Positions 4,973 to 16,359 of a stretch of 16,595 bases of DNA are shown here, piece after piece. Within the stretch, counting starts at the first letter, position 1. Each line of letters starts with the position of its first letter. Below the pieces are notes generated by a model. That model did no database searches and was not told the DNA's origin. It saw nothing but the letters and a program-made list of their open reading frames with translations. Source of the stretch: a virus; UHGV virus genome UHGV-0309045; one strand, written 5' to 3'. Both the position numbers and the translations under genes were made by a program.

Positions 4973-5125
4973 TCAGCCCTCCCATATCTCATTATCGTTG
5001 GCTACATCGCGAGCTTCTTTGCTGACGAAAGCCCACTTAATGCCTTCCTGTAAGGTGCGGAACTTCCAGCTCATGAATCCGCATGCAGTAACGCAGTACC
5101 AACCGTTGATGATTTTCCACTGCAT
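4973..5125 (-). CDS. Small ORF (50 aa), first gene after the pL-like promoter
   Basis: Hand-translated: MQWKIINGWYCVTACGFMSWKFRTLQEGIKWAFVSKEARDVANDNEIWEG. ATG 5125-5123 with GAGGT about 9 nt upstream; stop TGA 4975-4973 abuts the next start. Below the ORF-track length cutoff. Confidence 0.35.
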   Translation of the reverse strand: MQWKIINGWYCVTACGFMSWKFRTLQEGIKWAFVSKEARDVANDNEIWEG

Positions 5126-5144
5126 AACTTGTTACCTCGGTCTG

Positions 5145-5159
5145 TTACCGTTGAGGTAA
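5145..5159. promoter_or_regulatory. Operator site TTACC GTTGA GGTAA (promoter-proximal site of the pL-like promoter)
   Basis: Perfect match to the TTACC-N5-GGTAA palindrome. An extra TTACC half-site at 5132-5136 forms a 7-bp inverted repeat TTACCTC/GAGGTAA around it. Confidence 0.6.
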
Positions 5160-5187
5160 TAATTATGCTTATTTGGTTTGGTGTCAA
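5159..5187 (-). promoter_or_regulatory. pL-like leftward early promoter
   Basis: On the minus strand: -35 TTGACA (plus coordinates 5187-5182), 17-bp spacer, -10 AATTAT (5164-5159) whose last base is the first base of the operator at 5159-5145. Confidence 0.5.
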
Positions 5188-5206
5188 TAGATATGAGTTA
5201 AAAAAA

Positions 5207-5221
5207 TTACCCGTAAGGTAA
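5207..5221. promoter_or_regulatory. Operator site TTACC CGTAA GGTAA (promoter-distal site of the pL-like promoter)
   Basis: Perfect palindrome match, 19 bp from the -35 hexamer and 62 bp centre-to-centre from the site at 5145-5159. Confidence 0.6.
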
Positions 5222-5232
5222 TCTATCTGGCA

Positions 5233-5256
5233 ATAAAAAAGCCGCCATGAGGCGGC
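5233..5256 (-). terminator. Rho-independent terminator of the repressor gene
   Basis: Hairpin GCCGCC-ATGA-GGCGGC (5241-5256) followed on the minus strand by TTTTTTATTG (5240-5231), 23 bp downstream of the repressor stop. Confidence 0.75.
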
Positions 5257-5278
5257 TTACTTACTGAAAAATATAGTT

Positions 5279-5863
5279 TTATTGTTTGCTTTTTTCGTTC
5301 TGGTTGATGACAAATTCAATGTAACTTTCGATCTTTGCTTTCTCGGTTTCGGGTAACAATGCGTAGCGCGAGCGGTCATAGTTGATAGTCGCAGGGTCGT
5401 GCGGGTGAATCAGTAGTTCATATCCGTGACGCCCGAATGCGGATGCAACATTCTCCAGGGTGGAAATGGAAACGCTGACCTCATTGTTTAACAGGCGACT
5501 GATTGTCACCTGGGCGACGCCGGATGCGCGGTGAAGTTTTCCCTGCGTTGAAAGGTCGCGGCTTTCGCTCATCCAGCGTTCCAGGTTGTGAGCCGCCAGC
5601 TGACCAATGTCGCTTGGGCCGACAGGCTGAAAACCTTCCTGAGAAAGCGAGCGATCGATATCAAGCCAGTTACGGGGTTTATTGGCGGCAGCTTCAATTT
5701 TTCGCGCAACCTGGTCGCCGATAACCTTCTTGCCAAGAGCCCAGCGGTTTACCAGATTTGCCTGAGTTCCAAGTTTTTCTGCCATCCGCGTCTGAACACC
5801 ATTGAATTCACGGTCGATCAAGTCGTTGAGATTTTGCCTGCGGACGTCCTGGATACTTTTCAT
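5279..5863 (-). CDS. CI-like prophage repressor with two HTH segments and no recognisable LexA/S24 peptidase domain
   Basis: Divergent from the Cro-like gene across an operator-rich intergenic region. HTH-like segments TRMAEKLGTQANLVNRW and ASGVAQVTISRLL. No Ala-Gly/Ser-Lys autocleavage motifs seen by eye. Confidence 0.75.
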   Translation of the reverse strand: MKSIQDVRRQNLNDLIDREFNGVQTRMAEKLGTQANLVNRWALGKKVIGDQVARKIEAAANKPRNWLDIDRSLSQEGFQPVGPSDIGQLAAHNLERWMSESRDLSTQGKLHRASGVAQVTISRLLNNEVSVSISTLENVASAFGRHGYELLIHPHDPATINYDRSRYALLPETEKAKIESYIEFVINQNEKSKQ

Positions 5864-5918
5864 TTTCTGGAAAATCGCCTCATATATGAATCAGTAGATG
5901 ATTCAATTTAAAGCAATA

Positions 5919-5981
5919 TTACCCAACAGGTAAATGCACCTCATAGGTAACTATCCTTGATTTTTGTTACCTTATGGGTGA
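5919..5981. promoter_or_regulatory. OR-like operator cluster with divergent promoter region (three sites)
   Basis: 5919-5933 TTACCCAACAGGTAA (perfect), 5936-5950 gcACCTCATAGGTAA, 5967-5981 TTACCTTATGGGTgA. Candidate rightward promoter: -35 TTGTTA 5964-5969 and -10 TATTAT 5987-5992, with the third site covering the spacer. Confidence 0.65.
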
Positions 5982-6017
5982 ATATTTATTATCTGAAATA
6001 AATATCAGGCAATAGCT

Positions 6018-6248
6018 ATGAGCGATAACGGACATTTCGATTTCAAAAAGCACTGGCTTGCACTTACTCCGGATGAGCGTGAAGCCTTCGCACAGGAAGC
6101 CGGAACGACGAGTCACTATATCCAGACTCACTTAACAGGTAAGCGCAAAATGCCAGGTAAGGTATTGATGAATGGGCTTTTTAAAGCCTGTAAAACAAGA
6201 CAATGGCTGCGCTCAAAAGCAGAACTGGCATACTTCTTCTACTCATGA
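6018..6248 (+). CDS. Cro-like small HTH regulator
   Basis: 76 aa, first rightward gene after the operator cluster, with an HTH-like segment REAFAQEAGTTSHYIQTHLTG. Followed by a terminator. Confidence 0.6.
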   Translation: MSDNGHFDFKKHWLALTPDEREAFAQEAGTTSHYIQTHLTGKRKMPGKVLMNGLFKACKTRQWLRSKAELAYFFYS

Positions 6249-6270
6249 TATCCATCCACAACCCTCTGTA

Positions 6271-6292
6271 GACCGCCATCCGGCGGTCTTTT
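6271..6292 (+). terminator. Rho-independent terminator after the Cro-like gene (tR1-like position)
   Basis: Hairpin GACCGCC-ATCC-GGCGGTC followed by TTTT. Confidence 0.7.
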
Positions 6293-6303
6293 CATATCTA
6301 TTC

Positions 6304-6318
6304 GTACCTCAAAGGTAA
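6304..6318. promoter_or_regulatory. Imperfect operator-like site gTACC TCAAA GGTAA
   Basis: 9 of 10 match to the TTACC-N5-GGTAA half-sites, between the terminator and the next gene. A TTGATC hexamer lies at 6336-6341. Confidence 0.35.
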
Positions 6319-6398
6319 TAAAAAACCAAATCTGGTTGATCTTTTTTTTGTGTCAGCACAAAATGACCGTAATCCCAATACTAATAACAGGGCTTACC

Positions 6399-6599
6399 AT
6401 GGAAATTATTACACGTATTGATGCCGCAAAGCGCGGACTTAAACGCTACTACACCGGAAAACCATGTAAGCACGGACATGACAGTGAACGCTGGGTTTAC
6501 AACGGACACTGTGTTGAGTGCACTATGGAATCAAACCGTCGCATCAGGGCAGAGATTAAGCAGATCATGATTAATTCCTCCCCACAACATTCAAGCTGA
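6399..6599 (+). CDS. Small zinc-ribbon-like protein (66 aa)
   Basis: Preferred start ATG 6399 with CAGGG RBS 6 nt upstream. Cys/His cluster KPCKHGH...NGHCVEC. Occupies the CII-like position between the Cro-like and replication genes. Confidence 0.55.
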   Translation: MEIITRIDAAKRGLKRYYTGKPCKHGHDSERWVYNGHCVECTMESNRRIRAEIKQIMINSSPQHSS

Positions 6600-6614
6600 T
6601 AGCGGAGATTAATC

Positions 6615-7406
6615 ATGAGCAGACATGCAACAGATTGGGCCTGGGAGACAGATCCAGGTAGCTCGTCATTAAAGCTCATACTGCTCTCGATGGCTGACAG
6701 AGCCGATGAATATAACCTCTGCTACCCCAGCATAGAACGCCTCGTTAAAGACACTTGCCTGAATAAAAAAACCGTGCAGGCCGGGCTTATATCGCTCATG
6801 AAAATGGGGCTTATTTCAGATACCGGAGAGAGAAAGGGTGCGACGAAAAGAGTGCGGGTTTTCTCTCTTAATATAACCAAAAACGGGAACATTAAAGGCA
6901 ACCGGGAAGGGGGTAATGAACCCGAAAACGGTAATGTTACCGAAAACGGGAATATACCCAAAAACGGGATGTTGAATGATCCCAAAAACGGGATCCAGAA
7001 CCAGTCATATAACCAGTCATTTAACCAAGAGAGGGAGAGCAGGACAAAAAGCGGGGATTCTGTGCCTCATGACCCCGGCGCAAACAACGCCGTGATGAAT
7101 AACTTTGTTCCTCCTGGTGGGCCAGGGCAATTAGGCAAATTTGTCATGCATGAACAATGGCAGCCATCAGATGACTTTCTTCGGAAAAGCTCATTGCAGG
7201 GGATCTACCTGGACAGTCTGCCAACGGCACAGGAGCTTGCAGAGTTCAGAATTTACTGGATGGCTGAGGGTAAGGCATACCATCAGGCACAGTGGGAGCA
7301 GAAGCTGGCAAGGCGGCTGCAGATTAGCAGACAGAAGCAATCAACATTACCTGATAACAACGTTCCGCACTGGAACAGCCCTGAAGCGTGGGAGGATTTC
7401 TTGTGA
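6615..7406 (+). CDS. Replication initiator: N-terminal winged-HTH domain and C-terminal DnaT-like domain (lambda O functional analogue)
   Basis: C-terminal block GKFVMHEQWQPSDDFLRK...ELAEFRIYWMAEGKAYHQAQWEQKLARRLQI resembles E. coli DnaT as recalled. The central NG-rich linker is encoded by the iterons. GGAG RBS upstream of ATG 6615. Confidence 0.8.
   Translation: MSRHATDWAWETDPGSSSLKLILLSMADRADEYNLCYPSIERLVKDTCLNKKTVQAGLISLMKMGLISDTGERKGATKRVRVFSLNITKNGNIKGNREGGNEPENGNVTENGNIPKNGMLNDPKNGIQNQSYNQSFNQERESRTKSGDSVPHDPGANNAVMNNFVPPGGPGQLGKFVMHEQWQPSDDFLRKSSLQGIYLDSLPTAQELAEFRIYWMAEGKAYHQAQWEQKLARRLQISRQKQSTLPDNNVPHWNSPEAWEDFL
6877..6993. repeat. Iteron array (putative phage ori) inside the initiator gene
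   Basis: Five copies of CC(A/G)AAAACGG(G/t)A at 6877, 6922, 6940, 6958 and 6982 (spacings 45, 18, 18, 24 bp), followed by a tandem AACCAGTCAT repeat at 6999-7008 and 7011-7020. Confidence 0.7.
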
Positions 7407-8188
7407 ACAACGTTTTTACCGCGATACAAAACCGTGACGGAGAAGCCCTTTCTCGCATGTCAGGTTATGAGCATCAGTACGTCAACAATGACAATGTGGT
7501 GAACATGTCAGCAGAGAGGCTTGTTGATGCCCTTTTCAAACAGCTGAAACAACTGTTTCCGGCGGCAGTAGTAACCAACCTGAAGACTCCAGAGCAGGAA
7601 GTTGCTGCAAAACAGCAGTGGATTGCTGCGTTTGCCGAAGGGGGGATCCGAACCCGTGAACAGGTTTCTGCTGGTATGCGCCACGCCCGCGCCAGTGAAT
7701 CTCCGTTCTGGCCGTCGCCAGGGCAATTCATCAAGTGGTGTAAAGACAGCAAGATGGTTCTTGGCGTCACCATTGACGATGTGATGGCGGAGTTTCACCG
7801 GTACAGCAAGGAAAAAAGTTTATATCCTGGTGGTCCCGAAAGATTCCCGTGGCGACATCCGGTTATGTACTGGGTCGTATGTGATACCCGCCGTGCAATG
7901 TATCAGCGCCAGCTTAGCGAGATTGAGGTTGAGAAACACGCGCGCAGGCTGCTCGATGATTGGGCGAAAAAGGTAGCTTCCGGACAGCAGATACCCGATC
8001 CGGTGATCAGCATACAGGCAAAGCCAGAACCCATGAGTACGCCTCCGGACACAGGGAGAGACGTTTACCATCCACCAGGGCGAAGTTTCGGGTGTATGCC
8101 TAACGCCGCCACATTGGGGGGAATAACACCGGCACAGTGGCTGATGGAGGAATACAGGCGGGGAAAGGCGGCAGGATTTATCAAGTAA
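7403..8188 (+). CDS. Lambda P-like replication protein (helicase loader)
   Basis: PFWPSPGQFIKWCK and surrounding blocks match lambda P as recalled (PFLPSPGQFVAWCR). GTG 7403 overlaps the initiator stop TGA 7404-7406 and has GGAGG 7 nt upstream; the ORF track starts 15 nt earlier at another GTG. Confidence 0.85.
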   Translation: MNNVFTAIQNRDGEALSRMSGYEHQYVNNDNVVNMSAERLVDALFKQLKQLFPAAVVTNLKTPEQEVAAKQQWIAAFAEGGIRTREQVSAGMRHARASESPFWPSPGQFIKWCKDSKMVLGVTIDDVMAEFHRYSKEKSLYPGGPERFPWRHPVMYWVVCDTRRAMYQRQLSEIEVEKHARRLLDDWAKKVASGQQIPDPVISIQAKPEPMSTPPDTGRDVYHPPGRSFGCMPNAATLGGITPAQWLMEEYRRGKAAGFIK

Positions 8189-8193
8189 TACCA

Positions 8194-8213
8194 GCGCGAT
8201 AGCGCATTTTTTT
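8194..8213 (+). terminator. Weak terminator-like element after the P-like gene
   Basis: 4-bp GC stem GCGC-GATA-GCGC followed by ATTTTTTT. The stem is short, so confidence is low. Confidence 0.3.
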
Positions 8214-8225
8214 ACGCCTTGATAG

Positions 8226-8302
8226 TTACCTTCTGGGTAACAAAGTATTCTAAACTCTATTGATTTCGTGTCTTATGTGGTTTTTAATTACCTCAGGGGT
8301 AA
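8226..8302 (+). promoter_or_regulatory. Operator-promoter-operator module driving the accessory operon
   Basis: Operators TTACCTTCTGGGTAA (8226-8240) and TTACCTCAGGGGTAA (8288-8302), both perfect palindrome matches. Between them -35 TTGATT 8260-8265, 17-bp spacer, -10 TTTAAT 8283-8288. The downstream operator overlaps the RBS of the 8306 gene. Confidence 0.6.
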
Positions 8303-8305
8303 ATT

Positions 8306-8650
8306 ATGAGAAAACAGATACAGGCTCTTGGTCGACTCAAAACAGGCCAGATGAACAAAACAGAATCTGCGTATTGCCAGCACCTTGAGTTGCGTAAACG
8401 TGCAGGAGAAATCGTCTGGTATCGATTTGAGGGTATCAAGCTGCGGTTAGCTGACAACACGTTCTATACGCCAGATTTTGCTGTGATGCTCGCCACCGGC
8501 GAGATGGAACTGCACGAAGTGAAAGGTTTCTGGACCGACGACGCCAGGGTGAAAACCAAAGTCGCCGCAGATCAGTATCCGTTCCGAATCATCGGGGTAA
8601 CGGTTAAACCAAAGAAAGCAGGTGGTGGCTGGAACATCGAAGAGTTCTGA
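8306..8650 (+). CDS. DUF1064-like phage protein (putative PD-(D/E)xK-type nuclease fold)
   Basis: Pattern ...AYCQHLELRKRAGEIVWYRFEGIKLRL...YTPDFAVM...ELHEVKGFWTDDARVKTKVAADQYP fits the DUF1064 spacing as I recall it. RBS AGGGG 6 nt upstream. Confidence 0.55.
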   Translation: MRKQIQALGRLKTGQMNKTESAYCQHLELRKRAGEIVWYRFEGIKLRLADNTFYTPDFAVMLATGEMELHEVKGFWTDDARVKTKVAADQYPFRIIGVTVKPKKAGGGWNIEEF

Positions 8651-8711
8651 ATCGACGATCTTTTTAGTTATCAATGTAATCAATAAGTTATGTGGATAAG
8701 CGAGGGTAAAG

Positions 8712-9245
8712 ATGGAAAGTAATATCAAAGGGTTAGTTGCCGCCGGGCATGAGATGGCTTCGGAACTGAAAGCAGAATGTGGTGCCGTTGATATGCGCAG
8801 TGTGGCAAAGCTGATCAGCGATTTGGCAACGCAACTGGAAGTGCAACTGGTGCGTGCTAATGCGATGGCCGAAGACCAGCAGAAAGCGATTGAGTCAATT
8901 AAGCAGGCTGATTCGGCTGTTAAGTTGGCACACGAGAAGTTTTCGGCGCTGGCGGCGGAGAATGCGGCAATGCATGAAGCTATTGAAGCCGTTCGGAGTG
9001 TTGCGGATAACTCCAGTGGAATTGCCGGATGGCATTTGAATGGCGATATCGCTACATGGGAAGAGATTCTTCCTGAAATTAACGATATCGAAACCCCAGC
9101 CACCGATGCTTTCCTGGCTGAAGTACGGGCGCAGGGGGTAGAGATGTTCTCAGAAAAATTCGGAGGTGGCACTCCGCTATCCAATATGGTCAAAGAGGTT
9201 GCGGCTGATTTTGCGGCGAAGCTTCGCAAAGGAGGCAACCAGTGA
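8712..9245 (+). CDS. Hypothetical helical protein (177 aa)
   Basis: GAGGG RBS 5 nt upstream of ATG 8712; stop overlaps the next start (GTGA). No recognisable motif. Confidence 0.7.
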   Translation: MESNIKGLVAAGHEMASELKAECGAVDMRSVAKLISDLATQLEVQLVRANAMAEDQQKAIESIKQADSAVKLAHEKFSALAAENAAMHEAIEAVRSVADNSSGIAGWHLNGDIATWEEILPEINDIETPATDAFLAEVRAQGVEMFSEKFGGGTPLSNMVKEVAADFAAKLRKGGNQ

Positions 9246-9865
9246 GCAAGATTGACTATCAGGCACTGCGTGAAGCGGCAGAACGCGCAATTCCGGCAAT
9301 GGAACGCCTGTTAACGTTGCCAGCCGATGATGACTTGTTAAGCGAAAAGGAGCTTAAAGATAGCGATGTTGATATTGATGCGATTAACAACTTCAAACTG
9401 CTGACCGGCCCGGAAACGGTGCTGGCACTGCTGGATGAACGGGAAAGAAACCAGCAATACATAAAACGCCGTGACCAGGAGAACGAGGATATTGCGCTTA
9501 CGGTTGGGAAGCTGCGAGTTGAGCTGGAAGCCGCAGAGAAGCGCAACGCTGAATTACAAAGCGAGAATGCATACATCCGCAACCGGTTCAAAGAACTGGA
9601 CCTGTTAATCGGGAAAAACATTCTGGTCATGCAGGCTGCGATTATCGAATGGCAGGCAACTGGCGACGCTAAGAGCGGACTGGCATGGATTTATAACACA
9701 CTGTTTGGCCCTGGCGAATTGCCGGACGAATCTGAGAAAGATGCTCAGGCCTACTTTAATCGCAAATATGCACCGATTGACGAAAAGCTTATGGAGCTTC
9801 ACAAGTGGTTTTGGGAACAAAGTGAATCCGAGCGCGCCGCTGGCATTCGCATCAAAGGAGAGTGA
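9242..9865 (+). CDS. Hypothetical coiled-coil protein (207 aa), possibly ead/Ea22-like
   Basis: GTG 9242 with GGAGG RBS 6 nt upstream. N-terminus MSKIDYQALREAAERA and a central coiled-coil segment. Family name is a tentative recollection. Confidence 0.6.
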   Translation: MSKIDYQALREAAERAIPAMERLLTLPADDDLLSEKELKDSDVDIDAINNFKLLTGPETVLALLDERERNQQYIKRRDQENEDIALTVGKLRVELEAAEKRNAELQSENAYIRNRFKELDLLIGKNILVMQAAIIEWQATGDAKSGLAWIYNTLFGPGELPDESEKDAQAYFNRKYAPIDEKLMELHKWFWEQSESERAAGIRIKGE

Positions 9866-9866
9866 T

Positions 9867-10154
9867 ATGGCAACTTTGCAGGAATTAATCGACCTGACGC
9901 CAGAACAGGAAAAAGCGTGGAATCGCCTTGTGAAGGCTGTAAAGGATTTCAGGGCAGCCGGAGGAAAGTTTTATAGCGTCCTGGACACGCTGAGCGCATA
10001 CAACGGCGAGCACGTTGCCAGCATTGATAACGATAAGGGCTACCACACTGCAAGCGTCTATATGCCTAGCATTGATGCGCCAGGGCTAACCAGTTGGGCT
10101 GATGATTGGCACGGCATCACGCTGAAAGATGGCGTTGAAGTGGATGAGGACTAA
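9867..10154 (+). CDS. Hypothetical protein (95 aa)
   Basis: ATG 9867 one nucleotide after the previous stop, with AAAGGAGAG RBS. The ORF track extends further upstream in frame, but that part overlaps the preceding gene. Confidence 0.65.
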   Translation: MATLQELIDLTPEQEKAWNRLVKAVKDFRAAGGKFYSVLDTLSAYNGEHVASIDNDKGYHTASVYMPSIDAPGLTSWADDWHGITLKDGVEVDED

Positions 10155-10157
10155 CAC

Positions 10158-10517
10158 ATGACCACTATTACCAATAAGAAACAGTATCCCAGCGAGCAAT
10201 ATCTTAATGAGCTGATCACCAACATAGAGTTTGCTGCAAGGGCACCAGTTGAAGTCGTGAGAGCGATGGCAGCAGAGCTACAGAAGCGGCGCGAAGCTGA
10301 TAGTGCAGAACCTGTAAGCCAGGCTTACAAGTTGAACGCGCTGGATGGCAACTCTCCGGTAACTCCGGATGGTTGGGTTATGGTTCCTAAACAGGTAACG
10401 CCGGAAATCAGCAACGCGATAAACGTTGTGGGTCAACGCTGTACATGCGGAAATTGCTCTCAGCGGTTGTGGGATTTATTACTCGACGCCACACAGCAAG
10501 GAGTTAACCGTGGCTAA
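10158..10517 (+). CDS. Hypothetical protein (119 aa)
   Basis: ATG 10158, 3 nt after the previous stop. C-terminal CTCGNC motif. Confidence 0.65.
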   Translation: MTTITNKKQYPSEQYLNELITNIEFAARAPVEVVRAMAAELQKRREADSAEPVSQAYKLNALDGNSPVTPDGWVMVPKQVTPEISNAINVVGQRCTCGNCSQRLWDLLLDATQQGVNRG

Positions 10518-10791
10518 CCTGCAACTTGCCGTTAAAGGTGAATACTTCGATGCCATGATTCGCGGAGAGAAAACGGAAGAGTATCGCCTGTGTAATGACT
10601 ACTGGAATAAGCGAATTATGTTCCGGGAGTATGACCGCCTGATTATCACAAAGGGATATCCGAAGCGCGACGACTCCAGCCGCAGAATTAACGTCCAGTA
10701 TGACGGATATGAAATCAAGACAATCACACATCCCCACTTCGGTGATAAACCGGTAAAGGTGTTCGCGATAAAGGTAAATATTGATGGCTAA
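10510..10791 (+). CDS. ASCH/DUF3850-like small protein (94 aa)
   Basis: GTG 10510 with AAGGAG 6 nt upstream, overlapping the previous gene by 8 nt. LQLAVKGEYFDAMIRGEKTEEYR resembles the ASCH-like DUF3850 N-terminus as recalled. Confidence 0.5.
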   Translation: MANLQLAVKGEYFDAMIRGEKTEEYRLCNDYWNKRIMFREYDRLIITKGYPKRDDSSRRINVQYDGYEIKTITHPHFGDKPVKVFAIKVNIDG

Positions 10792-11122
10792 ATCAGCAGC
10801 AGAGCGCAAAGCCGCTCAGAGAGCCAGACAAGCTGCATCTGGTGTGTGTAAGCTGGAAATTGTGCTTGATGCTCAGGAAATTGAAATGCTGGCGCGGAAC
10901 TGCGCCGCCCGGCGCCCTAGTCGCGATCCCTATGAAATGGCCGAGTACATCGCGCTGCTGATCCGCCAGGATGATGCACGTGTGCGCGGGCGTATAAAAT
11001 CGATCAGCAGAAAACTTTGCGGTAAGTGCGGCGAGAGAGTTCCCGTTAATTCATGCCCGTGTAATGGTGACTCGCAATGCTGGGTGACTAAAGGCTGGCA
11101 TGAAACGAAATTAATAGTGTGA
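10784..11122 (+). CDS. Basic Cys-rich zinc-ribbon protein (113 aa); candidate regulator, last gene before the terminase operon
   Basis: ATG 10784 overlaps the previous stop. Basic N-terminus MAKSAAERKAAQRARQAA and C-terminal CGKCGERVPVNSCPCNGDSQC cluster. Stop TGA 11120-11122 lies inside the 12-bp palindrome. Confidence 0.6.
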   Translation: MAKSAAERKAAQRARQAASGVCKLEIVLDAQEIEMLARNCAARRPSRDPYEMAEYIALLIRQDDARVRGRIKSISRKLCGKCGERVPVNSCPCNGDSQCWVTKGWHETKLIV

Positions 11123-11130
11123 CATGTCAC
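11119..11130. repeat. Perfect 12-bp palindrome GTGACATGTCAC (14-bp TGTGACATGTCACG shared with 13383-13396)
   Basis: Read directly from the sequence. Overlaps the stop of the 10784 gene and precedes the terminator at 11172. Confidence 0.85.
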
Positions 11131-11171
11131 GAGTAGATTATGCATGATGAATTTGATGGGTTTTGAATACT

Positions 11172-11198
11172 GCCGCCAACTATGGCGGCTTTATTTTG
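11172..11198 (+). terminator. Rho-independent terminator ending the accessory operon
   Basis: Hairpin GCCGCC-AACTAT-GGCGGC followed by TTTATTTTG. Confidence 0.75.
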
Positions 11199-11201
11199 CA
11201 T

Positions 11202-11233
11202 GGTACTATTACCACAACGGTAACTATTACCAC
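11202..11233 (+). repeat. Tandem direct repeat GGTA(A)CTATTACCAC x2 with 18-bp period, just upstream of the terminase small subunit
   Basis: ACTATTACCAC at 11205-11215 and 11223-11233. Each unit carries the operator half-sites in everted order (GGTAA-N3-TTACC). No sigma70 consensus promoter is evident, so this may be an activator-dependent late promoter. Confidence 0.5.
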
Positions 11234-11240
11234 GGTGGTT

Positions 11241-11837
11241 ATGATGCCTGCTGAACCTAAAACCTATAAACGCAAATCAACGCAATTTAAGCCACTAACA
11301 GCAATGCAGGAGGCTTATTGCCAGTCATACATCAAAACGCCTGAAAACCAGACTCAGGCAGCGATTAACGCAGGATTCTCCCCAAATACAGCGGCAGTTA
11401 AAGCCAGTGTCATGATGCGCGATGAACGCATTCAAAAACGGATTGCCGAGCTGATGGAGGAGCGCAACAAACGAATGCGCGTCAGTGCTGATTACGTTCT
11501 CATGCGCCTGGTGGAGATCGACCAGATGGACGTGATCGACATCCTCAACGACGATGGGAGCCTTAAGCCAATCCGCGAGTGGCCGAAAATCTGGCGCACT
11601 ACGCTTAGCGGCTTTGATCTGTCATCGACCATCATGAACATGAACGAGGATTCGATAGAGACAATCCTCAAAAAAATTAAATGGCCTGACAAGGTGAAGA
11701 ACCTCGAGCTTATCGGTAAGCACGTCGACGTCAACGCGTTCAAAGAGCGCCTGGATGTTAATGTGAATGTGACAATTGCTGATCGCATAGCGGCAGCCAG
11801 GAAGCGACTCAAAGAACGTCAGGATGGTAATCAGTGA
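11241..11837 (+). CDS. Terminase small subunit (Terminase_2-like)
   Basis: LTAMQEAYCQSYIKTPENQTQAAINAGFSPNTAAVKASVMM matches the small-terminase HTH signature. Start placed at ATG 11241 because the ORF-track start at 11163 spans the upstream terminator. Confidence 0.8.
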   Translation: MMPAEPKTYKRKSTQFKPLTAMQEAYCQSYIKTPENQTQAAINAGFSPNTAAVKASVMMRDERIQKRIAELMEERNKRMRVSADYVLMRLVEIDQMDVIDILNDDGSLKPIREWPKIWRTTLSGFDLSSTIMNMNEDSIETILKKIKWPDKVKNLELIGKHVDVNAFKERLDVNVNVTIADRIAAARKRLKERQDGNQ

Positions 11838-13309
11838 CAGATGCAGTGTTATCTCCTGAAGAGCAGTTAATCGAAGATATTGCAGGGTTCACTCACGATC
11901 CGCTTGGCTATGCCCTCTATGCGTTCCCGTGGGGGGAAGAGGGGACTGAACTGGCACATGCCACCGGCCCACGTCAGTGGCAGGCTGATGCGTTCCGAGA
12001 GATACGTGATCACCTGCAGAATCCAGAGACGCGCTATCAGCCGCTTATGCTGGCACGCGCTTCTGGTCACGGTATTGGTAAATCCGCATTCATCTCAATG
12101 CTGATCAACTGGGGCATGTCCACTTGCGAGGATTGTAAGGTCGTGGTGACCGCCAACACCGACAACCAGCTACGAACGAAGACTTGGCCGGAAATTATCA
12201 AGTGGTCGAACCTTGCTATCACGAAAGACTGGTTTACCTGTACCGCTACCGCGATGTACAGCAATGACCCTGGGCACGACAAGCGGTGGCGAGCTGACGC
12301 AATCCCCTGGTCTGAGCACAACACTGAGGCATTCGCCGGATTACACAATGAGCGCAAACGCATCATCGTGGTATTCGATGAAGCGTCGAACATTGCGGAT
12401 CTGGTGTGGGAAGTTGCCGAGGGTGCGCTAACGGACGAAGACACTGAGATTATCTGGGTGGCGTTCGGAAACCCGACGCGTAATACCGGACGTTTCCGTG
12501 AATGTTTCCGCAAGTATAAACACCGCTGGAAAACTGCGCAGATTGACAGTCGGACGGTGGAAGGTACCAACAAACAGCAGTTGCAGAAATGGGTTGATGA
12601 CTACGGGGAAGACAGCGACTTCGTTAAAATCCGTGTGCGTGGCATATTCCCTGATGCATCTGAATTGCAGTTTATCCCTACCGGTCTTACTGACGAGGCA
12701 ATAAAACGGGTGGTAACCGCTGCGCAGGTTGCACATGCTCCGGTGATAATCGGCGTTGACCCGGCATACTCCGGCGTTGATGACGCTGTGATATACCTGC
12801 GGCAGGGGCTACACAGTAAGGTGCTGTGGACTGGAAACAAGACTACCGACGATCTGATTATGGCGAAGCGTATCGCTGACTTTGAAGACCAGTATCAGGC
12901 TGACGCGGTGTTCATCGACTTTGGTTACGGAACCGGTTTGAAGTCAATCGGTGACGGCTGGGGTCGTACATGGCAACTTGTTCCGTTCGGTGGCGCGTCT
13001 ACTGACCCGCAGATGCTCAACAAGCGTGGGGAGATGTTCAACTCATGCAAGACATGGCTGAGGCTTGGCGGCATGCTGGATGACCATGAAACAGCGGACG
13101 ACCTGTCGGCGGCAGAGTACAAAGTTCGAGTGGACGGTAAAATCGTTATCGAACCGAAGGAAGATATCAAAGAGCGGCTTGGGCGTTCTCCTGGTAAAGG
13201 CGATGCGCTACTGCTGACGTTTGCGTTCCCTGTGTCGAAGCGTCTGCGAATTCCCGGTCAGCAGAACCAGCAAGGCAAGGCCATCACAGATTACGATCCC
13301 TATGCTTAA
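11834..13309 (+). CDS. Terminase large subunit (ATPase plus nuclease)
   Basis: Walker A ARASGHGIGKS, Walker B-like IIVVFDEAS, nuclease-domain block VIIGVDPAYSGVDDAVI. GTG 11834 overlaps the small-subunit stop (GTGA). Confidence 0.9.
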   Translation: MTDAVLSPEEQLIEDIAGFTHDPLGYALYAFPWGEEGTELAHATGPRQWQADAFREIRDHLQNPETRYQPLMLARASGHGIGKSAFISMLINWGMSTCEDCKVVVTANTDNQLRTKTWPEIIKWSNLAITKDWFTCTATAMYSNDPGHDKRWRADAIPWSEHNTEAFAGLHNERKRIIVVFDEASNIADLVWEVAEGALTDEDTEIIWVAFGNPTRNTGRFRECFRKYKHRWKTAQIDSRTVEGTNKQQLQKWVDDYGEDSDFVKIRVRGIFPDASELQFIPTGLTDEAIKRVVTAAQVAHAPVIIGVDPAYSGVDDAVIYLRQGLHSKVLWTGNKTTDDLIMAKRIADFEDQYQADAVFIDFGYGTGLKSIGDGWGRTWQLVPFGGASTDPQMLNKRGEMFNSCKTWLRLGGMLDDHETADDLSAAEYKVRVDGKIVIEPKEDIKERLGRSPGKGDALLLTFAFPVSKRLRIPGQQNQQGKAITDYDPYA

Positions 13310-13350
13310 TCCGCTGGTGGGGATAATGTCGTTGATATCCTCTGGTGAGG

Positions 13351-13379
13351 ATAAAACAAAGCCAGCTCATCGGCTGGCT
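13351..13379 (-). terminator. Terminator hairpin between the convergent terminase large subunit and 118-aa genes (mainly minus-strand)
   Basis: Stem AGCCAGC-TCATCG-GCTGGCT (13360-13379). Minus strand has TTGTTTTAT after the stem; plus strand has only GTTTG. Confidence 0.5.
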
Positions 13380-13383
13380 GTTT

Positions 13384-13395
13384 GTGACATGTCAC
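13384..13395. repeat. Second copy of the palindrome GTGACATGTCAC
   Basis: Identical 14-mer TGTGACATGTCACG at 13383-13396, lying between the stop of the 118-aa gene at 13400 and the terminator hairpin. Confidence 0.85.
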
Positions 13396-13399
13396 GGTG

Positions 13400-13756
13400 T
13401 TATTGCTCGCTTAACTTCTGCTTCAGCAAGTAACCTTCGAGCATCCAGATTTTGTTTACAGCATTCTGCCGGGCAATCTTCCGACCAATTTCTGCATCAA
13501 AATTTTCCGGACTTGCACAGGCACTCTCTCCGGTGACGGTGAAGCCATTCTTCAGTACCAATACGCAGAAAGTCAGGAGGTCTGTAGATTTATGCGCTGT
13601 CCATGAATCGCCAACGCCCATATTGGCAGCACGAATGCCGTCATAAGCAGTAAAGAAATGCTCTTCAAGAATGATGCTTTCGATATATTGAGGCGTAACT
13701 CGCGGAGCGGTTTTGCCTTTCTCAACGATTTCTTTTTCGATTTGCTGGTCGTTCAT
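13400..13756 (-). CDS. Hypothetical protein (118 aa), reverse-oriented cargo gene inside the late region
   Basis: ATG 13756-13754 with AAGGTGAG RBS. Opposite strand to the flanking terminase and portal genes. No family recognised. Confidence 0.7.
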   Translation of the reverse strand: MNDQQIEKEIVEKGKTAPRVTPQYIESIILEEHFFTAYDGIRAANMGVGDSWTAHKSTDLLTFCVLVLKNGFTVTGESACASPENFDAEIGRKIARQNAVNKIWMLEGYLLKQKLSEQ

Positions 13757-13767
13757 AATCTCACCTT

Positions 13768-13791
13768 AAAAAAATGCCCGGCGAACCGGGC
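13768..13791 (-). terminator. Rho-independent terminator immediately upstream of the 118-aa gene RBS
   Basis: On the minus strand: GCCCGG-TTCG-CCGGGC followed by ATTTTTTT (plus coordinates 13776-13791 stem, 13768-13774 A-tract). Confidence 0.65.
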
Positions 13792-13869
13792 GAACTGGAA
13801 GCAATGAGTTATGCCTTCCGTGGCTGTACGGGTTTACAGCATGAAGTCATCGCAATGGCGTCCTGCTGT

Positions 13870-13911
13870 AAAAAGGGCGGTGATAGTCCTTCAAGGGAAA
13901 CCATCACCGCC
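13870..13911 (-). terminator. Rho-independent terminator downstream of the tRNA
   Basis: 9-bp stem GGCGGTGAT/ATCACCGCC (13876-13884 and 13903-13911) with an 18-nt loop, followed on the minus strand by CTTTTTAC. Confidence 0.6.
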
Positions 13912-13954
13912 AAGCCCCTGGAACTTCTGGCATCACGGTCCTTAGGCGTGATTC

Positions 13955-14031
13955 TGGTGTGGCATGCAGGATTCTAACCTGCGACCAACCGCTTAGAAGG
14001 CGGTTGCTCTGTCCAACTGAGCTAATGCCAC
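13955..14031 (-). tRNA. tRNA-Arg (anticodon UCU), argU-like, with encoded CCA
   Basis: Minus-strand sequence GTGGCATTAGCTCAGTTGGACAGAGCAACCGCCTTCTAAGCGGTTGGTCGCAGGTTAGAATCCTGCATGCCACACCA folds by hand into a cloverleaf: 7-bp acceptor stem, 4-bp D stem, 5-bp anticodon stem with loop CTTCTAA, 5-bp T stem, discriminator A, CCA. Close to E. coli argU as recalled. T-loop reads TTAGAAT rather than TTCGAAT. Confidence 0.9.
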
Positions 14032-14353
14032 AACGCTGAGAGCACTTAGCCTGTTAAGGCGCCACACTTTGTCGCGGCTCCATAAATGCTCTCATCGTTG
14101 TACCCTCGTCTCTTCCGAGGCGTCACACCGAATCGCCGGGATGGTGAATCCCCGTGCGCGGAATAAAACCGCTCGACTTGCACATTCCGGCTACCTGGTT
14201 CGTTTGCCCGAGCAAGGTAGGGTGCCCCTTAAACGTATCCAGACCGCTATCGTCGCATGTGCCATACGCCGTACTGCTCAAAATAAAAGCTCACTCCACC
14301 TGTTCAATTTAACGACAAGCCAGTCAGGTTAGTAACCGGAATGAACTTTTTTG

Positions 14354-14390
14354 TTACCCGAAGGGTAATAATTCGCGCGTTAAATGTCAA
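14354..14390 (-). promoter_or_regulatory. Operator TTACC CGAAG GGTAA (14354-14368) with an adjacent minus-strand -35 TTGACA (14390-14385); candidate repressor-controlled leftward promoter for the tRNA unit
   Basis: Perfect palindrome match and a perfect -35 hexamer on the minus strand 16 bp away. No convincing -10, so direction and function are inferred. Confidence 0.4.
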
Positions 14391-14458
14391 CTGCCTACGA
14401 TAAATAAATCATATGTGGTTAAATTGGTAATAATTTAATTGCGTACGGAGTCATTGAT

Positions 14459-14665
14459 ATGTGCATGGGTAGCTCACCATCAGTGCCTGCAACACCAGAA
14501 GTTCAGGCAGCACCACAGGAGCAGGATTCCGCCGTTGTTGATGCCCGAGACGAAGAAACTCGTCGCCGTCGCGCTGCTGCTGGTCGTAGTTCTACGCTGC
14601 TTACCGGTTCTCAGGGCGACACATCAACCGCTAATACCAGCGGTAAAACGCTGCTTGGTCAGTAA
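14459..14665 (+). CDS. Small low-complexity ORF (68 aa) immediately upstream of the portal gene
   Basis: GGAG RBS 8 nt upstream of ATG 14459. Shares the 12-nt translation-initiation sequence CGGAGTCATTGA with the portal gene. Ala/Ser/Thr/Arg-rich; coding status uncertain. Confidence 0.45.
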   Translation: MCMGSSPSVPATPEVQAAPQEQDSAVVDARDEETRRRRAAAGRSSTLLTGSQGDTSTANTSGKTLLGQ

Positions 14666-14679
14666 CCGGAGTCATTGAA

Positions 14680-16359
14680 ATGGCGGAAACAACTAAAGAG
14701 CGATTGAACAAACAGTTCGCACAACTTGAAAGCGAGCGTCAGTCGTTCGAGCCGCACTGGCGCGAGTTGAGTGATTACATCAACCCGCGTGGTTCCCGCT
14801 TTCTGACTTCTGAGGTCAACCGTAACGATCGACGCAATACACGCATTATTGATTCGACCGGGACTATGGCGGCGCGCACTCTCGCCAGCGGCATGATGTC
14901 AGGCATCACAAGCCCCGCGCGTCCGTGGTTTCGCCTGGCTACGCCAGATCCTGAAATGATGGATTATGGCCCTGTTAAGTTGTGGCTTGAGGCGGTGCAG
15001 AACCGCATGAACGATATGTTCAATAAGTCGAATCTCTACCAGTCTCTTCCGCAGTTATACGGAAGCCTCGGCACATACAGCACTGGTGCAATGGCGGTGC
15101 TGGAGGATGACGAGGACATCATTCGCACAATGCCATTCCCGATAGGCAGTTACTACCTGGCTAACTCACCTCGTGGCAGTGTGGACACCTGTTTTCGCAA
15201 GTTCTCTATGACTGTTCGTCAGCTTGTTCAGGAGTTCGGGCTAAATAACGTCAGCGAATCCGTAAAAAGCATGTGGGAAAGCGGCACCTACGAGAAGTGG
15301 ATTGACGTGATGCATTCGGTTTACCCGAACATTGACCGCGATACATCGAAGCTGGATAGCAAGAACAAGCCATTCAAATCGGTTTATTACGAGGTTGGTG
15401 GCGATAACGACAAGTTGTTGCGTGAGTCCGGATTTGATGAGTTTCCAATTATGGCTCCGCGCTGGGAAGTTAATGGCGAAGATGTTTATGGATCATCATG
15501 CCCGGGTATGCTGGCGCTTGGACCTGTTAAGGCATTGCAGCTTCTCCAGAAGCGCAAGTCGCAGTTGATTGATAAAGCCACCAATCCGCCGATGGTTGCT
15601 CCGACTTCCCTCAAGAATCAGCGCGCCTCCCTTCTTCCTGGCGACATCACGTATATCGATCAGATTACTGGTCAGGATGGTTTCAGGCCTGCTTATCTGG
15701 TTAACCCCAGTACAGCAGATCTGGTAGCAGACATTCAGGACACTCGTCAAATCATTAACAGCGCCTACTTTGTCGATCTGTTCATGATGTTGCAGAACAT
15801 CAATACCCGCTCGATGCCTGTTGAAGCGGTGATCGAAATGAAAGAAGAAAAACTTCTGATGTTGGGGCCGGTTCTGGAGCGTCTGAACGACGAATGTCTT
15901 AACCCTCTCATTGACCGCGCTTTCTCGATGATGGTGCGTAAAAACATGCTGCCGCCACCGCCTGACGCGATGGAAGGTATGCCCCTGAAGGTCGAATACA
16001 TTTCCGTCATGGCTCAGGCGCAGAAGTCTATCGGCCTGTCCAGTCTGGCGTCCACGGTTAACTTCATTGGTCAACTTGCGCAAGCGAAACCAGAAGCTCT
16101 CGACAAACTCAACGTTGATCAGGCGATCGATGCATTCGCTGATATGTCCGGAGTGTCTCCAACCGTCATTGTTCCGCAGGAACAGGTTGAGCAGGCTCGC
16201 CAGCAACGGGCACAGCAGCAACAGCAGCAACAAATGATGGCGATGGGGATGGCGGCGGCACAGGGTGCCAAGACGCTAAGCGAAGCTAAAACTTCGGATC
16301 CGAGTGTTTTGTCAGCTATGGCGAATGCAGTTAGTGGTCAGGGTGGGCAATCACAATGA
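14680..16359 (+). CDS. Portal protein (T7 gp8-like head-to-tail connector family)
   Basis: 559 aa. Overall pattern and the Gln/Ala/Met-rich C-terminal tail (QQRAQQQQQQQMMAMGMAAAQGA) resemble T7 gp8 as recalled. GGAG RBS 8 nt upstream of ATG 14680. Confidence 0.88.
   Translation: MAETTKERLNKQFAQLESERQSFEPHWRELSDYINPRGSRFLTSEVNRNDRRNTRIIDSTGTMAARTLASGMMSGITSPARPWFRLATPDPEMMDYGPVKLWLEAVQNRMNDMFNKSNLYQSLPQLYGSLGTYSTGAMAVLEDDEDIIRTMPFPIGSYYLANSPRGSVDTCFRKFSMTVRQLVQEFGLNNVSESVKSMWESGTYEKWIDVMHSVYPNIDRDTSKLDSKNKPFKSVYYEVGGDNDKLLRESGFDEFPIMAPRWEVNGEDVYGSSCPGMLALGPVKALQLLQKRKSQLIDKATNPPMVAPTSLKNQRASLLPGDITYIDQITGQDGFRPAYLVNPSTADLVADIQDTRQIINSAYFVDLFMMLQNINTRSMPVEAVIEMKEEKLLMLGPVLERLNDECLNPLIDRAFSMMVRKNMLPPPPDAMEGMPLKVEYISVMAQAQKSIGLSSLASTVNFIGQLAQAKPEALDKLNVDQAIDAFADMSGVSPTVIVPQEQVEQARQQRAQQQQQQQMMAMGMAAAQGAKTLSEAKTSDPSVLSAMANAVSGQGGQSQ

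Follow-up and report, generated by a model that had tools for sequence, protein, structure and literature searches.

The 14-mer TGTGACATGTCACG, an exact palindrome found twice in the window (the whole stretch of 16,595 nucleotides that was analysed), is most likely the binding site of a small uncharacterised phage regulator whose own gene ends in the first copy. The window belongs to a phiV10/epsilon15-like (Uetakevirus) prophage of E. coli. In this prophage the palindrome stands at the ends of gene blocks and has no specificity for the terminase genes. The two 14-mers are probably two of three cognate operators of a ribbon-helix-helix (RHH) regulator acting at the ends of transcription units. 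The features concerned are listed in Table 1.

Table 1. Features of the window around the two copies of the palindrome.
Feature	Position	Strand	Remarks
Gene of RHH and Cys-rich (zinc-ribbon-like) protein, 112 aa	10784..11122	+	epsilon15 gp49 / N15 gp46 family, phrog_536
Palindrome copy 1	11118..11131	n/a	Core GTGACATGTCAC at 11119-11130; TGA of the RHH gene inside
Intrinsic terminator of early-right operon	11172..11198	+	41 nt downstream of copy 1; GCCGCCAACTATGGCGGC + TTTATTTT
Two TTACC-N5-GGTAA operator-like motifs	11209..11241	+	Just upstream of probable terS start; "repressor" sites in the epsilon15 annotation
terS and terL	11241..13309	+	Genes between copies 1 and 2; Terminase_2; terL homologs
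Intrinsic terminator of minus-strand moron gene	13360..13379	-	4 nt after copy 2 on the minus strand
Palindrome copy 2	13383..13396	n/a	Core 13384-13395; between terL-proximal hairpin and minus-strand moron stop
Moron-type gene	13400..13756	-	Pfam Phage_gp49_66 (PF13876, E 1.7e-34); stop 4 nt from copy 2 core

The identity of the two 14-mers, on which the original prediction was built, was confirmed in the window sequence. With up to two mismatches allowed, five matches to the 14-mer were counted in the window against 0.14 expected, and none of 200 shuffled sequences reached this number. Each copy is flanked by a stop codon on one side and an intrinsic terminator on the other. The core of copy 1 includes the TGA (11120-11122) of the RHH gene and is followed on the plus strand by a hairpin (11172-11189) with a T-run, as had been proposed. 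Copy 2 stands beside the stop codon of the minus-strand moron gene and is followed by the hairpin 13379-13360, also as proposed, but its distance from the stop is 3 nt (4 nt from the 12-bp core) and not 5 bp. This hairpin and its T-run were called as a terminator on the minus strand only, the plus strand having no good T-run. terS probably starts at ATG 11241 or 11244 and ends at 11837, and terL extends from 11834 to 13309.

Within the window the copies are 2265 bp apart and flank terS and terL, in agreement with the 2.27 kb first reported. The claim that they exactly bracket the terminase operon did not survive, because a third exact copy is present in the same prophage (NZ_OZ040490.1), outside the window and about 19.8 kb downstream of copy 1. 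Copy 3 is located at the end of the long structural operon, 1 nt past the TAG of its last gene, where it abuts a terminator some 17 kb beyond the terminase genes. The pair is thus no specific bracket of the terminase, and the apparent bracketing is an artefact of the window's limits.

Relatives from Salmonella, Enterobacter and Klebsiella have the three sites unchanged and in syntenic positions. The exact core was found at all three positions in epsilon15, SPN1S and Tyrion, with diverging flanks; phiV10 has two exact copies and a copy 1 with one mismatch, and BUCT711 carries copies 1 and 3. The position of copy 1 is kept in epsilon15, SPN1S, Tyrion and BUCT711, and the terminator that follows it is also kept in the first three. 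Syntenic counterparts of copy 2 are located in epsilon15 (2142), phiV10 (2262), SPN1S (2174), Tyrion (2702) and the relatives L210-L216. In Uetakeviruses all three copies are at the 3' ends of transcription units beside terminators.

What is conserved is a perfect 12-bp palindrome preceded by a pyrimidine and followed by a purine, and the consensus of the functional core is Y-GTGAC-NN-GTCAC-R. Among 110 non-redundant sites, Y was found at -1 in 105 and R at +1 in 106, so that the dyad symmetry running through the centre of the site extends into the flanks in about 95% of them. The spacer is 2 nt in all 110 copies. All 10 half-site positions are invariant, and the two central positions are the only variable ones. 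Most genomes have the same central dinucleotide at all their sites, but it changes from one phage group to another: AT in Uetakevirus and ZF40, TG in N15-like phages and GC in Yersinia. Vibrio phages mix the centres AC, GC and CC, and in BUCT711 one site has GT and the others AT. These groups track classes of the beta-strand in the RHH protein (RKLELVLD, GTxRRDWxLE and GINEIRARLE), and the N-terminal helix of the protein, ERKxxQRxR, is invariant like the half-sites.

The site is also linked to the RHH gene by position. We compared 46 homolog loci from different species, encoding homologs 40-81% identical. In about 36 of them GTGAC-NN-GTCAC either overlapped the TGA of the gene or stood 3-7 nt after its TAA or TAG, irrespective of whether a terminator, a LexA-box promoter or the next gene lay downstream. 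Sixty sites were found in 843 kb against 0.8 expected, and control palindromes with permuted half-sites gave at most 5. Genomes with a homolog contained 1-4 sites each against 0.03-0.05 expected; those of N15-like phages, ZF40 and Vibrio phages had about three apiece against 0.03. The motif was absent from a Pseudomonas phage that has a 65%-identical large terminase and no RHH gene. An open reading frame ended within 14 nt of 83% of the sites (7% of random positions), and a terminator-like hairpin was present within 60 nt of 38% (6%). Outside the Uetakeviruses the sites are often away from terminators, and in other phages some lie inside coding regions on either strand. The protein family (phrog_536, epsilon15 gp49 or N15 gp46) has 772 database homologs at E<=0.001, which occur in podo-, sipho- and myoviruses and in plasmid-prophages of Enterobacterales and Vibrio. 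In a virome scan for the 14-mer, 45 of the matches listed (80 loci) were not Uetakevirus-like, and most of these 45 looked like chance or coding matches.

AlphaFold modelled the 112-aa protein with confidence; the model has the beta-strand, helix, helix fold of the RHH (Arc/MetJ/CopG) superfamily and matches RHH DNA binders, MatP included. The protein has in addition a basic N-terminal helix and a Cys-rich C-terminal tail. The prediction was made for a monomer, and the dyad-symmetric site, as read from its sequence, is consistent with a dimeric binder without proving one. A Foldseek search of the PDB with either protein model gave nothing significant. In a profile search against PDB sequences, YbiI and TraR were matched at E ~0.05 over the helix 52-74 and the Cys region. 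DksA/TraR proteins are characterised by CxxC-x17-CxxC behind a long helix. The tail motif CxKCGxxLP...GDxxCW resembles their CExCGxxIP...PGxxxCxxC, but has the fourth Cys displaced, and the Pfam model of DksA/TraR (PF01258) matched none of 60 family members. We keep the putative TraR/DksA-like nature of the tail as a weak lead only.

From this linkage and co-variation we infer that the protein recognises the palindrome and acts there. Of the roles considered in the original prediction, a regulator at operon ends is the one favoured, by its co-occurrence and co-variation with the RHH gene and by the 3'-end context of the sites. The RHH and zinc-ribbon-like protein, encoded last in the early-right operon, would sit on each palindrome as a dimer. 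Its basic N-terminal helix, which is conserved, would together with the beta-ribbon read the invariant GTGAC half-sites, and the ribbon would sense the central dinucleotide. In this phage type every site has a stop codon no more than a few nt away and an intrinsic terminator closely following, and marks the 3' end of a transcription unit. The bound protein would most likely stop RNA polymerase where two units meet, as a site-specific block or insulator. Where the site overlaps the RHH gene's own stop codon, the effect would be negative autoregulation, since transcripts arrested there would end before that codon. The two remaining sites would serve to seal the junctions with oppositely oriented moron genes.

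RHH repressors are small dimers that read short symmetric or repeated DNA through a beta-ribbon, and many of them autoregulate. The phage protein has its fold in common with P22 Arc, Mnt, CopG, omega, ParG and antitoxins (TacA, MazE, ParD), but it carries a Cys-rich C-terminal module that Arc-type repressors lack. Such repressors have operators overlapping the promoters ahead of the genes they control, which are often their own, whereas the phage RHH site is on its own gene's stop codon and the others are at operon 3' ends. Roadblocks formed by LacI, CodY and CcpA are a further parallel, since these too are sequence-specific DNA binders within or at the end of a transcription unit, in a position to halt RNA polymerase. 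They are, however, promoter regulators whose roadblock action is secondary, and in the phage the roadblock is a proposed one. We know of no dedicated phage factor described with sites systematically at stop codons and terminators. A literature search gave nothing relevant on the motif, on palindromes of epsilon15 or phiV10, on RHH roadblocks or on MatP-like proteins of phages.

A more elaborate form of the mechanism, which we regard as speculative and rather unlikely, is that the protein is a DNA-tethered elongation or termination factor. Parked at stop codons before terminators, it would capture RNA polymerase, possibly by means of a TraR/DksA-like C-terminal module. Polymerase arrested before the stop would yield non-stop transcripts and thereby silence the upstream gene, its own included; alternatively, the adjacent terminator might be switched on or off. 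If this were true, unrelated phage types would share a dedicated protein-DNA punctuation of transcription-unit ends.

The palindrome may instead be a loading site for antitermination, where the RHH protein or another factor engages polymerase so that the following terminator is read through. Early-right transcription would then be coupled to terS/terL and later units, as by lambda Q or RfaH/ops. At all three sites the terminated transcript carries the palindrome on the 5' side of its terminator. The RHH gene, as the last early gene ahead of terS, has a Q-like position. Its site comes directly downstream, and a terminator and then the late (terminase) genes follow; the annotations of these phages list no Q homolog. 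The weak resemblance of the tail to RNA-polymerase-binding zinc fingers points in the same direction, but the Pfam result across the family does not. The RHH protein has no similarity to Q. In a Q-type module the regulator's site is embedded in a promoter that has a promoter-proximal pause, with a terminator behind it, and QBE is located at the late promoter; the palindrome has a weak -35-like match at copy 1 and occurs again at the ends of late units. Furthermore, the order of palindrome and terminator at copy 2 is found only on the minus strand, where read-through would give RNA antisense to terL. Lambdoid and N15-like phages that have their own Q carry the RHH gene and site too, and the sites of other phages are frequently not close to terminators. 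Ahead of terS, gp3 and the tailspike gene there are other, repressor-type operators, which implies that these genes have their own promoters. We consider antitermination an unlikely alternative.

The idea of recombination scars raised in the original prediction found weak support at best. On this account the palindrome and terminator form a short conserved block for the exchange of cassettes, morons or modules between phages. In 80 close relatives the palindrome was invariant and the sequence turned to unrelated variants immediately beside the core; this set, found through TerL, contains only 98-99% relatives and is informative on flank variation, not on divergence. The slot at copy 2 holds unrelated moron genes, each with its stop codon 4 nt from the palindrome, and genes that stop 1-7 nt ahead of one site or another belong to at least 15 unrelated families. 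Against this, 12-14 bp offer little length for homologous exchange, and the site has no site-specific recombinase associated with it. The site is kept at syntenic positions across genera, lies within genes elsewhere and co-varies with a DNA-binding protein, a sign of strong selection and co-evolution, and selection after random recombination would likewise leave junctions at gene boundaries. As an explanation of the site, exchange is improbable, and it may be a side effect rather than a function.

It is very unlikely that the palindrome acts as RNA, as a 3'-UTR hairpin with a part in mRNA stability or processing or in the work of the terminator. Its position between stop and terminator does place it in the 3' end of three transcripts. 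Nevertheless, the hairpin energy is just -1.2 kcal/mol, the fifth pair of the 5-bp stem is unable to close a 2-nt loop, and variation at the two central positions alone leaves the invariant half-sites without compensatory changes. The flank preference is dyad-symmetric, and some sites are in coding regions on either strand. The palindrome was also rejected as an intrinsic terminator in its own right, given this hairpin energy and the separate terminators alongside.

There is an equally small chance that the site belongs to a host nucleoid protein, MatP or SlmA, which would link the prophage, or phage DNA during replication, to the organisation of the host chromosome or the control of division. 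The hosts are mostly enterobacteria or vibrios, and the half-sites are the same as those of matS (GTGACRNYGTCAC, 13-bp GTGAC-RNY-GTCAC; PMC6907758, PMC3116907). The spacer is nevertheless 2 nt in the 12-bp phage site and 3 nt in the 13-bp matS. Only the RHH part of MatP superposes on the phage protein, which has the basic N-terminal helix and Cys-rich tail instead of a four-helix bundle and coiled coil; hhalign gave a probability of 0.2%, and MatP was absent from the results of the profile search of PDB sequences. The phage protein is phage-encoded with sites at gene ends, and neither a MatP homolog nor a matS site was accepted. The SlmA-binding site SBS (GTGAGTACTCAC; PMC3020112) is likewise a 12-bp perfect palindrome with outer GTGA...TCAC, but its inner four bases are GTAC where the phage site has CATG. 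A SlmA half-site needs G, T, A and G at positions 1, 2, 4 and 5 and favours a pyrimidine at 6 (PMC3020112). The phage half-site G-T-G-A-C-A has C at 5 and A at 6 and was rejected; SlmA is moreover a TetR-family host protein and the phage protein an RHH one. A host factor would leave both the group-specific centre and the linkage to a phage gene unexplained.

The remaining suggestion of the original prediction, a relation to terminase recognition, taken here as pac-type sites for the small terminase, is the least probable: copies 1 and 2 flank terS/terL and a site lies 19 nt upstream of terS in two Vibrio phages, but copy 3 is far from these genes, the Pseudomonas phage with the related TerL has no site, sites occur with unrelated terminases in N15-like (lambda-type cos terminase), ZF40 and P2-like phages away from packaging genes, and three dispersed identical sites are ill-suited to a single packaging start near terS.

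The RHH reading gives a widespread uncharacterised phage family a predicted fold and a precise predicted target, Y-GTGAC-NN-GTCAC-R, and the prediction is directly testable, with the centres AT, GC and TG as a natural set of specificity variants. For a transcription factor the sites are oddly placed: one is on the stop codon of the regulator gene itself, and in Uetakeviruses each major operon end has one next to its terminator. This suggests control at gene ends instead of promoters. The epsilon15/phiV10 group is used in O157 and Salmonella typing and biocontrol; to our knowledge its gene regulation is poorly understood and its late regulator is not known. The half-sites being near-identical to those of host matS, the question of cross-talk with MatP arises. 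In annotating these prophages, the motif can help to locate the boundaries of units and the slots where morons insert.

Other kinds of site were also compared with the palindrome. In a promoter scan, copy 1 gave a weak match with GTGACA as -35 (9/12), one of 3 such matches in the region against 3.9 expected; the consensus scan found nothing comparable at copies 2 and 3, and the palindrome is probably not a promoter. The CRP consensus is TGTGA-N6-TCACA, and the window sequence TGTGA-CATG-TCACG differs from it in its 4-nt spacing and in the G at the last position. The "repressor" site annotated in epsilon15 was rejected as well, being a different motif, ATTACC-N5-GGTAAT, which is itself abundant in the window: TTACC-N5-GGTAA has 10 matches there against 0.27 expected.

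The 14-mer TGTGACATGTCACG had two matches in the window, one on the stop codon of a plus-strand gene and one close to the stop of a minus-strand gene, each followed by a terminator (Table). Positions and contexts agreed with the original prediction, except that copy 2 lay 1-2 nt nearer to the stop than the 5 bp claimed. When up to 2 mismatches were allowed, 0.14 occurrences were expected and the observed count was reached in 0 of 200 shuffles, as anticipated when a chance origin was called unlikely. The palindrome is a real, conserved and non-random feature.

Positions of the palindromes, the second motif and neighbouring features in the window
Feature	Position	Strand	Context
Copy 1	11118-11131		contains the TGA stop of the plus-strand gene 10784-11122
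Intrinsic terminator	11172-11189 plus T-run	+	41 nt past copy 1
Copy 2	13383-13396		3-4 nt from the stop of the minus-strand gene 13400-13756
Terminator	13379-13360	- (called on that strand only)	4 nt past copy 2
tRNA-Arg (anticodon TCT)	13955-14031	-	moron region, terL to portal; annotated in several relatives too
TTACC-N5-GGTAA	5145-5221, 5919-5981, 6304-6318, 8226-8302, 11209-11241, 14354-14368

The window belongs to a phiV10/epsilon15-like (Uetakevirus) prophage integrated beside guaA in E. coli, a type found in about 500 complete E. coli genomes. Positions 10700-14700 were 100% identical to NZ_OZ040490.1. Further upstream (about 5001-10700) the coordinate offset to that record shifted by about 145 bp, a sign that the early regions differ by an indel or through mosaicism.

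A scan of viral contigs gave many matches to the 14-mer outside Uetakeviruses; among the matches listed, most looked like chance or coding sequence. Several of those listed had a single feature in common, a homolog of the gene whose end lies in copy 1; this gene encodes a 112-aa protein with a predicted ribbon-helix-helix (RHH) fold. From a range of bacterial species we assembled 46 loci that encode RHH homologs of 40-81% identity (843 kb in all). GTGAC-NN-GTCAC occurred 60 times in these loci against 0.8 expected, and control palindromes with permuted half-sites at most 5 times. In about 36 of the 46 loci the site overlapped the TGA of the RHH homolog or lay 3-7 nt past its TAA or TAG, regardless of what followed: a terminator with terS, a promoter with a LexA box, xis/int, nin genes or simply another gene. 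The site is tied to the RHH gene, and a regulator binding site at operon ends was the one idea offered from the sequence that gained support.

In several non-Uetakevirus contexts (L210, L211, L216, L219 and L241) the site was directly followed, within 10-50 nt, by a strong promoter that overlaps a LexA box (for example TTGACT-N15-TATACTGTttaaatgTACAGTA). The palindrome then sits near position -47 of a promoter under SOS control, from where it could affect initiation as well. In unrelated viral contigs (L108, L127, L137, L142 and L156) the 14-mer lies amid arrays of GTCACG/GTGACG-type half-sites (for example tgtcacgcccctgtcacgccctgtcacgcgtgacgcTGTGACATGTCACG), which resemble the iterons of another system using the same half-site.

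All 10 of the 10 half-site positions were fixed, variation being confined to the two central bases, and the flanks were symmetric (pyrimidine at -1 and purine at +1 in about 95% of 110 non-redundant sites). Folded as an RNA hairpin, the palindrome would have an energy of just -1.2 kcal/mol, and a fifth pair could not close the 2-nt loop. Together these properties fit a symmetric dimer reading double-stranded DNA, and not an RNA structure.

The same half-sites were present in other phage types encoding distant RHH homologs (32-43% identity), where 0.03-0.05 sites were expected per genome. The N15-like PhiR46_1 and KpLi5 carried GTGACTGGTCAC on the stop codon and two further copies with the same centre. 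Pectobacterium ZF40 contained the 12-bp perfect palindrome GTGACATGTCAC three times, exactly; the site was GTGACGCGTCAC in Yersinia P2-like phages, and two Vibrio siphoviruses had three sites apiece with AC, GC or CC centres. Among 57 proteins compared, the basic N-terminal helix ERKxxQRxR was invariant, as were the half-sites, and the beta-strand classes RKLELVLD, GINEIRARLE and GTxRRDWxLE corresponded to the centres AT, GC and TG, respectively. These sequences are suggestive of co-evolution between beta-strand and central dinucleotide, short of conclusive because only three or four independent events are represented. In the Yersinia clade (L250-L254 and L259; prophages and phage vB_YenM_201.16), half-site-like repeats (CGCGTCACA or GTGACGTG) about 27 nt downstream of the full site suggest a compound operator.

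The RHH protein had no match in Pfam, NCBIfam or PDB sequence searches and was assigned by PHROGs to phrog_536, 'transcriptional regulator'. An AlphaFold model, for which a 60-sequence alignment of diverged representatives was used as input, was confident (pLDDT 91). It comprised a basic helix (residues 5-19), an extended segment (20-29), two further helices (30-42, 52-74), clustered Cys residues (79-99) and a short helix. The Cys-rich tail showed weak profile matches to TraR and YbiI (E about 0.05); a TraR/DksA-type domain was without Pfam support, and the likeness is a lead, not a finding. In the literature we found neither the motif nor the protein family described.

An ORF of at least 40 aa ended inside the site or at most 14 nt upstream at 83% of 321 sites, compared with 7% of random positions, and at least 15 unrelated gene families ended 1-7 nt ahead of a site. 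A terminator-like hairpin was present no more than 60 nt away at 38% of sites, versus 6% of random positions. In the slot of copy 2 (window 13397-13402; L210-L216, epsilon15 and SPN1S), unrelated moron genes stopped exactly 4 nt away, in the arrangement GTGACATGTCAC-GGYG-TTA after terL. The evidence is best read as making the palindromes cognate operators of the RHH protein, and we infer the effect of binding from their position: sites right after stop codons and ahead of terminators suggest that the bound protein would halt RNA polymerase at unit junctions. At the RHH gene's own stop codon, a halted polymerase would yield mRNA lacking that codon, and negative autoregulation would result. Antitermination at the adjoining terminators is the main alternative. 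Against it stand the orientation at copy 2, the occurrence of the module in phages having their own Q, and the separate operators ahead of each late unit.

These operators have a distinct second motif, TTACC-N5-GGTAA, annotated as 'repressor' operator in the epsilon15 record and found 10 times in the window against 0.27 expected. It surrounded the repressor gene (5279-5863), preceded terS, gp3/portal and a DUF1064 gene, and opened every plus-strand unit in the window. Its location before terS and gp3/portal makes the late units seem directly repressor-controlled, and with an operator at the 5' end and a palindrome at the 3' end, units appear punctuated at both ends. Outside Uetakeviruses some sites lay inside genes or upstream of start codons, so the role at unit ends may be one among those of a more general regulator.

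The genes between copies 1 and 2 are terS and terL; a moron gene (Pfam Phage_gp49_66), the tRNA-Arg, gp3 and the portal gene follow in order beyond copy 2. GTGACATGTCAC was found in three copies each in epsilon15 (2142, 19517 and 39612), SPN1S and Tyrion; phiV10 had two exact copies and one mismatch in copy 1, and BUCT711 had copies 1 and 3. All occupied the same three syntenic positions, with flanks that were either unrelated or only about 80% identical. At the third position, which closes the long structural operon, the palindrome directly adjoins a terminator; in the window's own prophage it was confirmed 1 nt past a TAG stop (tagcGTGACATGTCACAGGCCGCtttcGCGGCCTtgttttt). The exact bracketing of the terminase genes is therefore a window-edge effect. 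A terminase-specific site is not supported, given this third copy and a Pseudomonas phage whose 65%-identical large terminase was accompanied by zero copies. The recombination-scar idea had little support at best.

Near-copies with 1-2 mismatches in epsilon15 (26618, GTGACATGGCAT) and SPN1S (26722, GTGACATGTCAT) overlapped the Rz lysis gene's stop codon, where the lysis operon ends. They may represent a degenerate fourth unit-end site; none within 1 mismatch was found in the window's prophage.

Half-sites of matS (GTGACRNYGTCAC; PMC6907758, PMC3116907) are identical to those of the phage palindrome, but its spacer is 3 nt instead of 2, and no homology was detected between the RHH protein and MatP. 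The SlmA site (GTGAGTACTCAC; PMC3020112) is equal in length, but SlmA needs G and a pyrimidine at positions 5 and 6 (PMC3020112), where the phage palindrome has C and A. Identity with either site was rejected, the phage palindrome lacking the defining features of both. The palindrome/RHH pair resembles known RHH operator systems in how it would work and is set apart by sites at gene 3' ends and an extra Cys-rich domain. A widespread uncharacterised RHH family gains a precise, testable predicted target with unusual placement. Separate 13-bp GTGAC-NNN-GTCAC elements lay directly ahead of terminator-like hairpins in Vibrio phage K233 (19491, GTGACACCGTCAC), an exact fit to the host matS consensus, and in PhiPS02 (8812, GTGACGGTGTCAC), which fits the consensus on either strand.

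RefSeq and phiV10 start terS at TTG 11163, an ORF that would take in the terminator at 11172-11198 and both operator-like sites. The Pfam Terminase_2 match starts only at residue 45 of this long ORF; an epsilon15-style ATG (11241/11244) is more plausible. A Chi sequence (GCTGGTGG) at 13313-13320, 4 nt past the terL stop codon, was absent from that position in phiV10; two in the window is not statistically unusual, the count being reached in 14 of 200 shuffles. In a Rahnella prophage (L235), the large terminase homolog (+678 to +3119 from the RHH stop) was 813 aa long and appears to carry an inserted intein/homing-endonuclease-like segment.
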